The notes: generated by a model not told the origin, from the letters alone. Counted from the first letter of the stretch, positions 1-5,149 are shown. The stretch is DNA of 64,000 nt from Bacillota bacterium (GCA_017889625.1 JAGGAD010000021.1:798-64797); one strand, 5' to 3'. Made by a program: numbers and translations.

Positions 1-299
1 GTTATATTTTCCTTCCCAGCCAACCATTATTTTTTTATCTTTTATGTTGCTCCCAGGGAATTTATTGGATAGAGTTAAGCTTTTACTTGCGGGGACGTTG
101 ATAACAGCCACTTATCAACACTCCTTGTGTGACCATCTCCCCTTAGTATATGTTTTAGTCGCTAAAATGGTTTTAGTTCCCGGTGATTTTTTATTTGAAC
201 AGATGATATTCTACTTACGTTATCTTCGCTCTGTCTATACCTCTACTCAGAATATGTAAAGAGCTTGGTGGTTTAAACCAAACCCTCAATGTAAATTAT

Positions 300-572
300 T
301 TATGAAGTAAAACCAATACCTACATACACATTAGATACCGAATAACTTTCGCTACCAATACCCAACGACATTGTTGTCGAAGCGCCTGCCGCTAAGCCAC
401 CAATTGTATCTGTGAGAAAATAATCAGTCGTTGTTCCATCATAAAAAGCAGTAGCAACAAAAGTACCTGCAATAGCTGTGGTAGCACTACTATTACTAAG
501 CGTTATCCTTACTATACTGCCACCATCACTAGTATAATCTAAACTAAGGCCATAATCACTTACACCAGCCAT
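300..572 (-). CDS. Hypothetical 90-aa Ser/Thr/Gly-rich protein (element cargo)
   Basis: ORF with a strong upstream SD (AGGAGGAAAAATA-ATG on the minus strand). No recognisable family. Confidence 0.5.
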   Translation of the reverse strand: MAGVSDYGLSLDYTSDGGSIVRITLSNSSATTAIAGTFVATAFYDGTTTDYFLTDTIGGLAAGASTTMSLGIGSESYSVSNVYVGIGFTS

Positions 573-748
573 TATTTTTCCTCCTAAGATTTTTTTTTAT
601 TGTATTTATATTACATAATATTTAAGAACATCTAGAAATGTTACTAGGAATATCTTTTTGACTGCGCTAATCGAAAATCATTATTTTATACATAGTTTTT
701 CATAAATAAATCAAAAAGCCAACGGACTATTACATCCATTGACCTTTC

Positions 749-1456
749 TTATTTTTCGACTGATACTACATTAAAGCCATGCCGGATTATTTCCGGTACT
801 CGAATTTGGTTATCAAGATGCATGCAGTAAACTTTTTCTCGTACTCTCGGTTCAAAGGTTTCCATCAGCTTTTTTAATGACAGGTGGCTGTTACCGGGAT
901 AATCCAGCCCACAGGTATCTTGATATAGTCTATCGAGGCTACCAGACCACAGTTTATTTACAATTTCATCGGCAATGGCACTGGCATCTCCACTATAATA
1001 AAACATTTTTTCCTTACACTTTAGGATCAAGCCATATGCCGGTATTGTGTCAACATGCGGCACCCGGATAAATTCAATGCTGACTTCCCCCAGGTTAGCA
1101 TCAGTCCAGTTTACCTTGGCAGCACTTTCTAGGGCATACATATCACAGCTAACACCAATACAGGCTAAAAAGCTCTCCATCAATTTTTTATCAGGGAAAA
1201 AAACTTTCGGGCGTTGGTGTAAGATATAGTAGGAATAAAAAATTATCTCACCCAGGCTGCCGACATGATCAGGATGAGTATGGGTAATTACAATGTAGAA
1301 ATTGCGCAGAGTTTCAAGCAAGCGCAGTTCTTGCAACCGGGAAAATACGGTACCGCCACAGTCAATCAACAGCAGACTACTTTTCTCGGTTACGAAGGCT
1401 GCGGTATTTCCCATTCTTGTATTGAACGCACTGCCACACCCAATAAAATTAAGCAT
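749..1456 (-). CDS. MBL-fold metallo-hydrolase
   Basis: HTHPDH (HxHxDH) motif and overall metallo-beta-lactamase-fold pattern. AGGGGGT SD upstream. Confidence 0.75.
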   Translation of the reverse strand: MLNFIGCGSAFNTRMGNTAAFVTEKSSLLLIDCGGTVFSRLQELRLLETLRNFYIVITHTHPDHVGSLGEIIFYSYYILHQRPKVFFPDKKLMESFLACIGVSCDMYALESAAKVNWTDANLGEVSIEFIRVPHVDTIPAYGLILKCKEKMFYYSGDASAIADEIVNKLWSGSLDRLYQDTCGLDYPGNSHLSLKKLMETFEPRVREKVYCMHLDNQIRVPEIIRHGFNVVSVEK

Positions 1457-1508
1457 AGGTTTACCCCCTAGCTATTTTTCCAAGCTAATACCATTATTAG
1501 TCATTATT

Positions 1509-2450
1509 TTATCTGACCAAAAACCGGCGCGTGGGATTGCCGATTTTTAAATACTTGGCATAAATTTCCGGATGGCTGGCTTTAAGTTCTTTGCTGTCTA
1601 ACATCTCCCGCCCCTTAACATTAACCCATTCCACGACTTTGATACCGTTAATATAACCGACTTCATTGTCACCGAGAAGTTGTTTGAGATTATTTTCAGC
1701 TTGTGCTTTCCGCTGTTCGGCAGCTTCCAGGTCAACTATAGCGTTCAATCGATAATTTAGCCAAGTTTCGGCTTCGACCGGCAAAGTGATTGTTTGGCCA
1801 TTGGCCTTAGGATACAAGGTAAGCAATTCTTTGCCAGAGCCTGCTGCAACTGCTATTTGAGGCTTTGTTTTAGCAACTACCTCCTGCCAGAAGGTTTGTT
1901 CTTTTGGGATCATCTCAACGATAAAGTTGTCATCGCGAGGAATATATTTAGTAAAAAAGTGTTGCCCACCAATTAAAACAGCCACGTGGCATCCAACCCA
2001 GCCCATAACCGCGCAATCATGTTGCATCTGAACGTAGCTATTTTGGGGAATGTCGCTGCCCTGCCAATAGCGTGATTGATTTAAGGCGATATTCTTTATT
2101 TTAAGACCTTCTTGTTTACCGATTATTTCTCGATCTATATCGGCAAGCATAAAGGAGTATTCGGCATGCTGAAACAAAGCTCTACGGCGACGAATTTTAT
2201 TTTTTGTTTTTTCTACATATAAGTTGGCGATAGCACTTTCAATGATTTTGTAGATTATGACTTCTTCAGCATTAGCCGCATCGCCAAACGGAACTTGCCC
2301 GGTTTTATGCAGCCACAAATCTACCGGGCTGAGGTACGGATCTTCGCCGATGGCGCTAGCAGCGTCAGATCCGCATAGGCCGCATAATTTTTTTTGCCAC
2401 CATTCTTCGTTAGTTTTATCTCGAGCACGACACACTATCACAGGTTTCAT
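1509..2450 (-). CDS. YqaJ-like viral recombinase-type exonuclease (PD-(D/E)XK)
   Basis: N-terminal 'GLCGSDAASAIGEDPYLSPVDLWLHKTG' matches the YqaJ/lambda-exonuclease-like signature. Start moved to the ATG at 2450, which has a GGAGGTGGA SD. Confidence 0.7.
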   Translation of the reverse strand: MKPVIVCRARDKTNEEWWQKKLCGLCGSDAASAIGEDPYLSPVDLWLHKTGQVPFGDAANAEEVIIYKIIESAIANLYVEKTKNKIRRRRALFQHAEYSFMLADIDREIIGKQEGLKIKNIALNQSRYWQGSDIPQNSYVQMQHDCAVMGWVGCHVAVLIGGQHFFTKYIPRDDNFIVEMIPKEQTFWQEVVAKTKPQIAVAAGSGKELLTLYPKANGQTITLPVEAETWLNYRLNAIVDLEAAEQRKAQAENNLKQLLGDNEVGYINGIKVVEWVNVKGREMLDSKELKASHPEIYAKYLKIGNPTRRFLVR

Positions 2451-2486
2451 AATCCACCTCCATTTAGACTGCACCAACCTATAATA

Positions 2487-2678
2487 TTACTTTAAACTGA
2501 CATCTTGCTTAAAGCGTTGCTGATCTACTGGGATGGACTGCCAAATTATCCAAAAAGCTTTATGCCAGGCTTCAATAATACTGGCTTTATCAGCGTCAGA
2601 TACCGGCGGAGGATCAACAATATTAATAACTGATTTGCCATTATTAGCATAATAAGTTGCCGCGTATTTTTGCTCCAT
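2487..2678 (-). CDS. Hypothetical small protein (63 aa)
   Basis: ORF with a GAGGTGAG SD before the internal ATG (MEQKYAAT...). No family recognised. Confidence 0.4.
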   Translation of the reverse strand: MEQKYAATYYANNGKSVINIVDPPPVSDADKASIIEAWHKAFWIIWQSIPVDQQRFKQDVSLK

Positions 2679-2937
2679 AAACTCACCTCTACGACTATGT
2701 TTATGCATTTAATAATGGCGGACTACCATGCAGAATAACATTTTTGATCATTTCCTGGTTTTACTTGCCAAAAAGTTACTCATCACCCGTTCTCGTTAAT
2801 ATTAGCATGTAAAGACTTTCCCAAAGTGACAGTATAGTGGCATATTAACAAGCCGTATTGCTATATGAATAAAAAGTATCCACAATATACTGCAAACCGG
2901 TCTTCTACTCAGTATTTTACAGAAAGGGGGACATTTT

Positions 2938-4509
2938 ATGACTAACAGATCATCACCCATTGTTTTTGAACCAGCCTGTTTTTATCTGCGTAAATCCCGC
3001 GAAGATCATGAGGCGGAAACTCGCGGCGAAGGCGAAACGCTGGCCAAACACCGTAAAGCATTATTCAAATTGGCTAGCGAATACGGCGTGACTATCGCCA
3101 AGGTTTATGAGGAAATTGTCTCCGGCGAAAGTGTTATTCACCGCCCCGCGATGCTGACTCTTTTACAGGAGGTTGAGATTGGCCGGTGGCGGTCGGTGTG
3201 GTGTATGGATGTTGATCGGCTAGGCCGCGGCGGTATGCAGGATCAAGGCCTTATTATTGATACTTTTAAAACTGCCGGTACTAAGATTGTTACCCCGCGA
3301 AAGATTTATGACTTGAGTGATGAGTTTGATGAAGAATATACTGAGTTTGAAGCGTTTATGGCACGCAAAGAGCTAAAGATAATAACCCGTCGGCTTCAAA
3401 GCGGCCGACGCCGTTCCGTCGAGGACGGCAACTATATTGCAGCTAAAGCGCCTTATGGTTATGTAATCGAAAGTTTACCAACCGGACGCACGCTTGTCCC
3501 CCACCCCGAGCAAGCCACCGTGGTTCAGTTGATTTTCGAGCTGTATACTAATGATCAGCCTGAGCTTAGGCTCGGTAGCACAAAAATCGCTAATGAATTG
3601 AATCGTCTGGGGTATGCTACTTATACTGGCAAGAGCTGGGATGCTTCTACAGTGTTGTTTATCTTGAAAAATGAGGTCTATGCCGGCAGGGTACAGTGGC
3701 GCAAGCGGGAGGAACAAAAAGCTTCATCCCCAGACAAAAAAGAAGTTATCCGCACCCGCCCCCGTGAGGAATGGATTGATGTACCAGGAAAACATCCACC
3801 TTTAATATCACCAGCGCTTTTTGCTAAGGCCCAGCAAATACTAAAAGCCAAGTCACATGTTCCCTGCACTAAATCAAGGGGTATGACTAACCCACTAGCC
3901 GGTTTGATTAAATGCGGTCTTTGCGGAAATTCGATGGTTTATCGAAGCTATACCCGACAAAAATATTCTCATTTGGTGTGTTATAACCCTAATTGTATTA
4001 ATAAAAGCAGTCGTTTTGATTATGTCGAAACTGCGGTGTTAGAAGGGCTGCGGTCTTGGTTAGGCGCGTACCACACCAAATTTTTAGCAGCCCCCGTCCC
4101 TAATTCTTGTCTGGTAAATGTCACCACAAAAACTCTTCACCGCTTAGAAAAAGAACTAACCGCTTGTAATTTTCAAAAAGATCGCCTGCAAGATTTATTG
4201 GAGCAAGGCGTTTATGACAGTGCCACTTATTTCGCACGTTATTATAAAATAACTATGCGCATCACGGAACTCCAAATGGCTATCCGCCAGGCAAAGCTAC
4301 TTATCACTAAAGAGCAAGCGACCAATTGCAACCATGAACTTACAACCATTCCGGATGAAAAACTTATAACTGCATACGAAAAAACCGCCGACCCCAGTTT
4401 AAAAAACAACTTGCTTAAAGTTGTACTGGAATACGCGGTTTACGTTAAGAGTCCCGACCAGCGCGGACCGGAATTTGCTTTGACCTTATTCCCCAGACTA
4501 CCGCACTAA
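2938..4509 (+). CDS. Large serine recombinase (SpoIVCA/CisA-like)
   Basis: N-terminal resolvase domain with 'YLRKSRED' catalytic-Ser motif, a recombinase domain, a Cys-rich zinc ribbon (CGLCGNS...CYNPNC) and a coiled-coil tail. GGGGGA SD. Convergent with, and 36 nt from, the truncated sigK segment. Confidence 0.85.
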   Translation: MTNRSSPIVFEPACFYLRKSREDHEAETRGEGETLAKHRKALFKLASEYGVTIAKVYEEIVSGESVIHRPAMLTLLQEVEIGRWRSVWCMDVDRLGRGGMQDQGLIIDTFKTAGTKIVTPRKIYDLSDEFDEEYTEFEAFMARKELKIITRRLQSGRRRSVEDGNYIAAKAPYGYVIESLPTGRTLVPHPEQATVVQLIFELYTNDQPELRLGSTKIANELNRLGYATYTGKSWDASTVLFILKNEVYAGRVQWRKREEQKASSPDKKEVIRTRPREEWIDVPGKHPPLISPALFAKAQQILKAKSHVPCTKSRGMTNPLAGLIKCGLCGNSMVYRSYTRQKYSHLVCYNPNCINKSSRFDYVETAVLEGLRSWLGAYHTKFLAAPVPNSCLVNVTTKTLHRLEKELTACNFQKDRLQDLLEQGVYDSATYFARYYKITMRITELQMAIRQAKLLITKEQATNCNHELTTIPDEKLITAYEKTADPSLKNNLLKVVLEYAVYVKSPDQRGPEFALTLFPRLPH

Positions 4510-4544
4510 CTTGGATTCACATTTTTAGTTTACTGTAAATACAG

Positions 4545-4991
4545 TTAATGATAGAGTGGCATCTCATTTCCTTCTTTATCAACACCGATCGGATCATACA
4601 GACTAACTTCTGCTCTAGTTCGTCGCGTGCTTCTAAAATGCATAAGTATTTCATTTTCAATACACCTGGCTGCATATGTGGCTAGCCGCGTTTTTTTCCC
4701 GGAATCAAAGGTATTTATTGCTTTGATTAGGCCAATAGTTCCGATAGATATTAAATCATCTACTTCTTCGCCGGTATTGTCAAATTTTTTGACAATATGG
4801 GCGACTAAACGAAGATTGCGTTCAATCAGTACATTTTTAGCTGTTTCTTCCCCCTCTTTCAGCTGATTTAAATAAATACGTTCTTCTTTTTCTGACAGTG
4901 GTAATGGAAAGGTGTTGTTCGTTAAGTAGGCGACAAATAAAGAAAGTCCCGTGACAACTGATGTAGCCAGGGCCATAAAAACAGATACCAA
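4545..4991 (-). CDS. sigK: sigK 5' segment (spoIVCB-like): pro-sequence plus sigma regions 1.2-2.4, interrupted
   Basis: '[13 protein letters not shown]...[41 protein letters not shown]...[11 protein letters not shown]' is near-identical in pattern to B. subtilis pro-sigma-K. After GNE the frame reads MPLYH-stop. TTG start with a GGGGGGTGA SD. Confidence 0.85.
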
Positions 4992-5021: not shown

Positions 5022-5049
5022 TATTGTATGGGGGTGCTTTAGGTAACGT
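5022..5049 (-). promoter_or_regulatory. Candidate mother-cell (sigma-K/sigma-E type) promoter of sigK
   Basis: The minus strand reads AC-N17-CATACAATA, matching the sigma-K consensus AC-N16/17-CATAnnnTA. It also matches the sigma-E -10 CATACAnT. It lies about 31 nt upstream of the TTG start. Confidence 0.4.
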
Positions 5050-5149
5050 GCCTGTTAAAATATTCTAATATTTTTTTAGTAACAGCGTTACAGGGTACTC
5101 TGGGCAAACATGGAAAAATATTGTATAATCGCACCAGGAGAGTGATATA

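Follow-up and report, generated by a model that had tools for sequence, protein, structure and literature searches.

The stretch of DNA analysed here (the window) comprises 64,000 nucleotides, corresponding to C71:798-64797 of the 3.3-Mb, 113-contig draft genome (G000) of a Bacillota bacterium (GCA_017889625.1), and opens on a copy of the sporulation gene sigK that is split by an intervening element carrying a large serine recombinase (LSR). The 5′ fragment of sigK, the equivalent of spoIVCB, is located at 4563..4991 on the minus strand and supplies codons 1-143, which encode the pro-sequence and regions 1.2-2.4 of sigma-K. Its frame continues into the element, giving an open reading frame (ORF) of 148 amino acids (4545-4991, minus) that contains the hydrophobic pro-sequence, matches Pfam Sigma70_r2 (E = 4.7e-19) and reads MPLYH-stop directly after the junction, as a preliminary description made from the window alone had stated. 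An intact promoter, AC-N17-CATACAATA, can be read from the sequence ahead of the interrupted gene (5022..5049, minus) and would correspond to the sigma-K consensus and the sigma-E -10 element of B. subtilis. The LSR gene (2938..4509, plus) is convergent with the sigK 5′ fragment and encodes a SpoIVCA/CisA-type integrase of 523 amino acids with near full-length Pfam matches to all three domains, Resolvase, Recombinase and Zn_ribbon_recom; it ends 35 nt from the sigK fragment, in agreement with the earlier account of a recombinase of this type some 36 nt away. Beyond the recombinase, where phage-type genes had been noted, we identified a YqaJ/RecE-like exonuclease gene and a gene for an Apyc1-like hydrolase of the metallo-beta-lactamase (MBL) fold, and the content of the element is completed by two orphan ORFs and a gene, divergent from that of the LSR, for a conserved small protein of 63 amino acids (MEQKYAATY..., 2487..2678, minus).

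According to the preliminary description, regions 3 and 4 of sigK are absent from the 64 kb, and a tblastn search upstream of coordinate 1 was proposed to locate them. When the SigK sequence was searched against the whole genome, the only region 3-4 match was indeed found outside the window, at C71:27-275, within an ORF (C71:3-278, minus) on the same contig and in the same orientation as the 5′ fragment, 5.09 kb apart from it. This 3′ fragment, which reads NEITLIDVLGT...GISRSYVSRIEKRAITKL, lies about 0.5 kb upstream of window position 1 and is therefore invisible from the window alone. Joining the two fragments at the repeat that they share gives ...DKEGNE|ITLIDVL..., like intact SigK proteins, and a complete pro-sigma-K of 234 amino acids, in frame (143 + 91 codons). 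Contig C71 ends two codons short of the sigK stop, and the last codons (…AEDGS-stop) were read from other assemblies of the organism and from the terminal part of C98. The SigK equivalog model of NCBIfam, TIGR02846, accepts the joined ORF (351.8 bits against a cut-off of 298.65), as does NF004471; unjoined, nothing in the genome scores above the TIGR02846 cut-off, and the next-best locus, on C47, is SigE-like. The situation that would make this a decayed paralogue, namely an intact sigK elsewhere and no matching 3′ fragment on the replicon, is thus the reverse of what the genome contains, with the fragment present and no second intact sigK anywhere in the assembly. Both halves are under purifying selection (dN 0.05-0.12 with saturated dS; dN/dS 0.035 in comparison with another split copy), the 5′ fragment being 87% identical to intact orthologues at the amino acid level (dN about 0.1, dS saturated), and the low dN against saturated dS in both halves fits a split gene that is still in use. 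The genome also retains SigE, SigF and SigG-like genes, SpoIVA and SpoIIID.

The 9-nt direct repeat AAATGAGAT is identical at both junctions (C71:268-276 and C71:5358-5366), so that the element measures exactly 5,090 bp from repeat to repeat (C71:277-5366, equivalent to window -520..4569). The part within the window occupies 1..4569, the last 520 nt of the element, the second junction and the sigK 3′ fragment being located upstream of position 1. The full length accords with the earlier estimate of at least 4.5 kb running off the window, and the alignment of the two junctions, which had been recommended as a check, yields this repeat as the core of the attachment (att) sites. The core of attL on the sigK 5′ side (4561..4569, minus) contains the universal AATGA and is flanked by the element-side arm, which represents half of attP and carries a motif of the ACAG(a/t)TAA type (4510..4560, minus). 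In reconstructed attP sites this motif recurs in inverted orientation at a distance of about 20 nt from the core on each side; in five elements the left arm carries ACAGATAA(A/C) and the right arm the inverse sequence. The predicted attB junction reads ...GATAAAGAAGGAAATGA|GATTACACTTATTGATG... and the predicted attP junction ...CCTCAAGGGTAAATGA|GATGCCACTCTATC....

Six related elements break sigK at AAT-GA(A/G), the Asn-Glu codons of GNEI, and have the AATGA core in common. The stretch of identity between attL and attR varies among them (AATGA in Pelosinus, GAGATAACA in G002 and 16 nt in G006), and the only bases identical between attL and attR in all six are the GA of AAT-GA. Since serine recombinases require a matching central dinucleotide and GA alone is common to all elements, we infer that this GA would be the crossover dinucleotide. 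The core lies at sigK nt 423-431, with the insertion in codon 143/144, and this is therefore the same insertion site as that of phage PhiS63, for which the core GTAATGAAAT at nt 427 of sigK was determined experimentally (PMC3442830). In several of the intact sigK genes of relatives (L002, L003, L011 and L013) the core reads AAC-GA rather than AAT-GA, the codon still specifying Asn. In G002 the two sites differ, with AAT in attR and AAC in attL, which places the T/C position outside the crossover; the T/C difference at the core may not protect against integration.

The catalytic-serine motif YLRKSRED and the motif DRLGR can be read from the LSR sequence, which matches PHROG 95 'integrase' (3.7e-100) and shows 43-50% identity with its counterparts in phages PhiS63, phiCT9441A and THSA-485A. 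The closest solved structure is that of SPbeta SprA (9dxh, 2e-48), aligned over residues 15-512. Maximum-likelihood analysis placed the Negativicutes LSRs in a single clade (100/100), in which the inner branching tracks host taxonomy, starting from the host's own genus plus family, followed by Pelosinus with Massilibacillus and then Sporomusa. Outside this clade are the Bacilli LSRs and a clade of phage integrases that consists of THSA-485A, the phiCT9441A group and PhiS63 (97/98); all three belong to one 17-member group, within which the tree leaves their order unresolved.

For comparative purposes, we examined a panel of 40 related genomes. Half of these (20/40) have an uninterrupted sigK, 74-88% identical to the joined protein, and 12 have a sigK 5′ fragment ending at about residue 143-147; where both fragments are on one contig, the gaps between them are about 2.8, 3.7, 4.5, 19.6, 25.6, 42.5, 51.5 and 58 kb. 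An orthologue of the LSR (51-65% identity) is present in 13 relatives, always adjacent to and convergent with the sigK 5′ fragment, and is absent, at E <= 1e-60, from every relative with an intact sigK. Twelve of the 13 are broken at residues 143-147 and the thirteenth, the same-genus genome G001, at residue 124. As the related LSR loci come from Sporomusa, Pelosinus, Massilibacillus and Selenomonadales/Bacillota metagenome-assembled genomes, the host is a spore-forming member of the Negativicutes. An LSR tree that follows host taxonomy and a GC content of the element (40.9%) close to that of the genome (42.1%) fit long residence, and a core that is vertically inherited, with turnover of cargo and repeated loss, fits the data. 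We found no contig with the empty-site variant, in which the DUF1256 neighbour would stand beside an uninterrupted sigK. In the relatives G018, G032 and G035 (Sporomusa) sigK is broken near residue 118 (IENEILMH), at DNA (GAAAATGAAAT) that resembles the GNEI core. No orthologue of the present LSR occurs in these three genomes, and the breaks point to a second insertion site served by a different recombinase; in G032 the 3′ part of sigK is moreover present a second time, 4.6 kb downstream.

An all-versus-all comparison of the ORFs of five small elements (2,779-5,090 bp) revealed that, besides the LSR, only a protein of 61-76 amino acids is common to all of them, and its gene is retained even in the 2,779-bp element, in which almost nothing else remains. 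The representative of this family in the window is the 63-residue protein introduced above, and the real start of its gene is at MEQKYAATY, behind a AGAGGTGA ribosome-binding site. A profile search returned 126 related clusters, which lack a Pfam domain and of which nearly all the named ones are 'hypothetical'; the named sources are all spore-forming Bacillota, from four classes (Negativicutes, Bacilli, Clostridia and Tissierellia). AlphaFold predicts, with good confidence (pLDDT, a per-residue confidence score, of 89), a fold in which a beta-hairpin precedes two helices. The small protein was detected in 10 of 14 LSR-positive and 2 of 27 LSR-negative genomes (Fisher p = 5e-5, which is indicative only since the genomes are related), and its gene is inside the sigK element wherever coordinates permit checking. 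In Brevibacillus thermoruber the gene adjoins the same kind of LSR and a sigK 3′ fragment, and in Laceyella putida and Paenibacillus taiwanensis it is located within a few kb of the LSR. In LSR prophages of Desertibacillus, Anaerobacillus, Neobacillus and Anaeroselena and in phage THSA-485A it follows directly after a cro-like gene, and the Anaeroselena prophage is itself inserted in sigK. The position after cro is the classic place for an excisionase gene. No LSR of this kind was found within 6 kb of the family members in Desulfonispora and Tissierella. The small protein is encoded as two copies a few hundred nt apart in Tissierella sp. P1 (L034:6001-6490, adjacent) and in Laceyella putida (L022:7168-8027), and in Tissierella an MBL-fold gene about 1 kb downstream recalls the pairing of small gene and MBL gene in the window.

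The direction of LSR-mediated recombination is set in known sporulation systems by recombination directionality factors (RDFs) that are small orphan proteins, such as CD1234 (72 amino acids, expressed under sigma-E plus SpoIIID; PMC5025042), Skr (64 amino acids; PMC6957869) and GirX (42 amino acids; PMC5595907), the last of which was recognised as the gin RDF because it is conserved from one element to another (PMC5595907). By the same logic, since the 63-residue protein is conserved in all the mini-elements, co-occurs with the LSR and is encoded after cro in prophages, we propose that it is a candidate RDF, an assignment that we regard as reasonably likely to be correct.

Upstream of the small gene there is a promoter-like motif, GTCC-N14-CATAAACAT (2697..2723, minus), the -10 half of which ends about 18 nt before the ATG, with the ribosome-binding site in between. 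Twelve elements from three classes share the arrangement AGGGCnGTCC-N14-GCATAnACAT upstream of the small gene, in which GTCC and CATA are invariant and the spacing is fixed, followed after about 10 nt by a ribosome-binding site; in intact prophages the motif is within the annotated N-terminal extension of the small gene. The motif occurs 14 times in this genome, and the sole copy upstream of an ORF is that of the small gene. With 1/14 copies so placed, GTCC-N14-CATA was rejected as a general sporulation promoter. An RNA hairpin masking the ribosome-binding site was also considered, and a two-box promoter with fixed spacing was preferred, as pairing is possible in three of the sequences and not in the others. 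The -10 half resembles the -10 elements of the sigK (AC-N17-CATACAATA) and spoIIID (GCATATACAT) promoters of the same genome, and in the spoIIID promoter TTGTCC is directly followed by GCATATACAT. On the other strand the upstream half reads (A/T)(A/T)GGACnR (GGACnG), which would be close to the B. subtilis SpoIIID box, WWRRACAR. By analogy with the two RDF genes described next we infer, with less assurance than attaches to the RDF proposal, that the small gene may be transcribed in the mother cell. The RDF gene of C. difficile is transcribed by sigma-E with SpoIIID, and its sigma-E promoter and SpoIIID box precede a start site 14 nt before the start codon (PMC5025042), to be compared here with a CATA-type -10, a GGAC upstream box and a similar leader length. 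Likewise, sprB, the RDF gene of SPbeta, has a sporulation promoter (PE/K) besides a stress promoter (PMC6957869), which parallels the dedicated motif found before the small gene even in intact prophages. At the other end, a terminator-like hairpin directly after the MBL gene (713..748, minus) suggests that the small gene, the YqaJ gene and the MBL gene form one operon. The broadest form of the proposal, in which the 63-residue family would be a new and widespread RDF family for the largest sigK-targeting integrase clade and GTCC-N14-CATA a mother-cell promoter (sigma-E/K with SpoIIID) built into phages, is in our estimation evenly balanced between being right and wrong.

There is very little doubt that the 5,090-bp stretch is a skin-type sigK-intervening element. 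The skin-element architecture recognised in the preliminary description has been upheld by the 3′ fragment, the 9-nt repeat, the passing of TIGR02846 by the joined ORF, the lack of another intact sigK and the occurrence of LSR orthologues only with a broken sigK. That the element is excised during sporulation is probable, and the two statements taken together are held with considerable confidence. The element is a prophage that has been strongly reduced and sits in codon 143/144 of sigK. When the mother cell sporulates, the LSR would pair attL with attR and cut at the central GA of AAT-GA, releasing the element as a circle, and the restored sigK would be transcribed from its own AC-N17-CATACAATA promoter and the pro-protein processed. 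The spore would inherit the element, since excision would take place only in the terminal mother cell. Less certain steps are that the 63-residue protein, as RDF, would set the direction towards excision rather than integration, and that the timing would be provided by the conserved GTCC-N14-CATAnAnAT promoter of the small gene.

A number of observations weigh against one or other part of this interpretation, and these are considered here together with the alternatives on which they bear. An unlikely though serious alternative is that the excision machinery has been correctly identified and the 63-residue protein is a conserved phage early protein of other function; the role of RDF would then fall to a host factor or to a different gene product, for instance that of an unannotated overlapping ORF in the manner of B. 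subtilis Skr, or there would be no RDF. The protein has neither sequence nor fold likeness to characterised RDFs: no homology to known RDFs was detected via Pfam, PHROGs, NCBIfam, PADLOC or tblastn against phages, Foldseek returned no fold match in the PDB despite the confident model, and there was no PDB sequence match, including to the chain that contains SPbeta SprB. Nor was the protein detected in the fetched parts of two sigK-targeting Clostridium phages, PhiS63 and phiCT9441A, and four LSR-positive genomes lack a hit at threshold, of which three are drafts with broken elements and one, G039, has a weaker hit. The upstream half of the motif before the small gene, moreover, fits neither the sigma-E nor the sigma-K -35 consensus. 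One study describes the RDFs of LSRs as unrelated, 'scavenged' proteins (10.1101/2024.08.21.608926), so that position alone is weak evidence. Within the first part of the LSR gene there is a basic 43-residue ORF in the +1 frame (2960-3091, plus), which recalls Skr, the product of an ORF that overlaps the start of spoIVCA (PMC6957869). The 43-residue ORF has no ribosome-binding site, is not conserved in orthologous LSR genes and was rejected as an RDF since it has no counterpart in four orthologous elements; there is thus no conserved overlapping ORF here. Against this alternative, the 63-residue gene survives in every mini-element, even that of 2,779 bp, and tracks the LSR across four classes.

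It is very improbable that the element is an immobile relic, which would mean a permanently broken sigK and a lineage in which late sporulation has disappeared or is disappearing. All six assemblies contain the integrated form only, and a scan of metagenome contigs with IUPAC patterns for attB, attP, attL and attR gave one chance match, in a molybdate transporter. The LSR lacks a recognisable promoter, none being seen in the spacer between the integrase and the small gene by strict sigma-E and sigma-K patterns or a sigma-70 scan. The closest LSR, that of the same-genus G001 (62% identity; L014:9540-9994), stands beside a sigK 5′ fragment ending …MHFRST|HRCK-stop, and this junction has neither the AATGA core nor the attP-arm motif. 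It looks deleted, and that copy may be immobile or dead; truncation at residue 124 without the core implies that individual copies of the element can die. However, the present genome retains in intact form both sigK halves, which are under strong purifying selection, the sigK promoter, the full-length three-domain LSR, both att sites, SpoIVA, SpoIIID and the SigE, SigF and SigG-like genes. The integrated form alone is also what would be expected, as vegetative DNA dominates the reads of bulk metagenomes.

We consider it highly improbable that the element excises as a mobile satellite or mobilisable island, triggered by a helper phage or stress and not in sporulation. This would be in keeping with an LSR clade that includes the integrases of active temperate phages (PMC3442830) and with the location of the small gene in the early lytic operon of intact prophages. 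However, the element has no repressor/cro, packaging, capsid or replication genes, its LSR tree follows host taxonomy rather than recent transfer, its composition is ameliorated, and a lysogen unable to excise it in sporulation would make no sigma-K. Finally, an assembly artefact, with sigK split by a chimeric contig of two strains or loci in a 113-contig draft in which C71 ends just after the sigK 3′ fragment, can be practically dismissed because five independent assemblies (ENA, JGI, Logan) contain the 5,099-nt stretch, both junctions included, at 100% identity, and because a prophage inserted at the sigK stop codon in some strains but not in others accounts for the end of the contig.

As a skin-type element, the locus can be compared with systems already described. 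The skin phenomenon has been known since 1989, and the present element is an ordinary example of a well-known class: its site is that of a characterised phage, and mini-elements and one case in the Negativicutes were already catalogued in 2022. The closest resemblance is to PhiS63 and the C. tetani phiCT9441A group, which insert at the same point of sigK with the integrase opposite in direction to sigK; the integration core of that clade, (G)TAATGA(A/G)AT near nt 427 (GTAATGAAAT in PhiS63), is matched here by AAATGAGAT at nt 423-431, and the integrases are 43-46% identical and may form the sister clade. In contrast to the present reduced element of 5.09 kb, those are complete temperate phages of 34-47 kb. 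The survey of Galperin et al. (2022) lists skin elements of 2.6-48 kb, including one in Pelosinus fermentans (Negativicutes) (bioRxiv 10.1101/2022.02.25.481979), and our element resembles those in its split sigK, SpoIVCA-like recombinase at the edge, size range and unshared cargo. It differs in that the recombinase abuts the 5′ fragment, whereas in the survey it is usually beside the 3′ fragment, and in that within this LSR clade the 63-residue protein is shared as well, which qualifies, at least for this clade, the survey's statement that no gene but the recombinase is shared.

Like skinCd of C. difficile, the element combines an LSR (CD1231 in skinCd) with a small orphan protein (CD1234 with 72 residues, here 63). 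No relationship between the two small proteins appeared among the profile matches returned, the CD1234 sequence itself not having been compared. C. difficile sigma-K has no pro-sequence whereas sigma-K here has one, and the skinCd recombinase gene is in the other orientation relative to sigK (PMC3442830). With skinBs of B. subtilis, a developmentally excised sigK element, it shares a recombinase gene beside and opposite to the 5′ fragment and the presence of a pro-sequence; unlike it, skinBs measures 48 kb and is inserted in a different region of sigK (PMC3442830). The gin element in gerE (B. cereus, GirC/GirX) and SPbeta in spsM (SprA/SprB) offer the same principle of a sporulation gene rebuilt by an LSR and a very small RDF; their target genes differ, and the small protein has no similarity to SprB, GirX not having been compared.

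The analysis makes some modest additions, namely exact boundaries for the element, a probable crossover at GA, evidence that the element has long been resident and vertically inherited, and the RDF candidate with its control motif. The element approaches a minimal recombination unit of two att sites, an integrase and the 63-residue gene, relatives having versions down to 2.8 kb, and one such version, the 3.7-kb element (3,714 bp) of Sporomusa acidovorans DSM 3132, can be tested directly because this carrier is a cultured isolate. The 63-residue protein provides a concrete RDF candidate for an integrase clade that is without one, which bears on the timing of sigma-K in diderm spore-formers and is relevant to the use of integrase/RDF pairs in synthetic biology. 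The conserved motif could reveal whether sigK prophages carry their own sporulation switch. If so, sporulation-coupled excision would be built into the phages, and mini-skins would be what remains after all but the integrase, the RDF and the promoter has decayed.

The remaining cargo of the element is small. The YqaJ/RecE-like gene of the lambda-exonuclease family (1509..2477, minus; 313-322 amino acids) matches Pfam YqaJ (4e-19), PHROG 434 (5e-68) and TIGR03033, and the element contains no RecT-type annealing partner for it. The MBL-fold hydrolase (749..1456, minus; 235 amino acids) has the HxHxDH motif in the form THTHPDH and matches the Apyc1 model of Pfam, PF23023 (62.2 bits against a cut-off of 50), and PHROG 392 (3e-39). 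In the PDB it matches an uncharacterised MBL protein, 7fct (1e-53), for which we found no descriptive paper; Apyc1 (7u2s) matches at 1e-14, and the NCBIfam model for cyclic-nucleotide phosphodiesterases gives 25.6 against a cut-off of 400. Since the hydrolase is much nearer to 7fct than to Apyc1, an anti-Pycsar role of the Apyc1 type is no more than possible. An orphan ORF of 90 amino acids (300..572, minus) has no family match in Pfam, PHROGs, NCBIfam or PADLOC, and a 201-residue DNRLRE-domain ORF (C71:303-908; NF033679, 46.6 bits against a cut-off of 34), of which the 5′ end is in the window (1..111, minus), is the gene nearest to the sigK 3′ fragment. None of these four genes is common to related elements, except for a distant YqaJ in a Desulfonispora prophage. 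Searches with Pfam, PHROGs and NCBIfam identified no repressor/cro module and no packaging, capsid, structural, lysis or replication genes in the element. Defence or prophage modules, mentioned earlier as possible cargo of such elements, were not borne out, as the cargo is small and has no meaningful PADLOC match to defence systems. The exonuclease and the MBL hydrolase are both typical products of early phage genes, and their genes probably persist here as remnants.

A second mobile element was observed at the last two codons of sigK in another, metagenomic assembly (ERZ27260953, L036:13476-20192), where ...AEDGS-stop is converted to ...AEDG-stop. This is a prophage with a 390-residue tyrosine integrase, a cI-like repressor and AntA, and its site is empty in other assemblies and in contig C98 of this genome. 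C71 starts exactly at the breakpoint of this second element, about 0.8 kb upstream of window position 1. Thus, integrases of two kinds target the sigK of this species, at two different positions. The end of contig L053 and the start of L039, from Logan run SRR9651461, break within the spacer between the sigK promoter and DUF1256 (window about 5090-5120), with an overlap of about 30 nt, which hints at a sequence variant or a branch of the assembly graph at that spot. The spoIIID gene of G000 is likewise cut mid-gene by a contig break, between the end of C96 (40455-40573) and the start of C46 (1-137), where the contig ends have 16 nt in common and the frame reads through from one to the other. 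This break may represent another strain-variable insertion, and a skin-like element in spoIIID has been reported for Ruminiclostridium (bioRxiv 10.1101/2022.02.25.481979).

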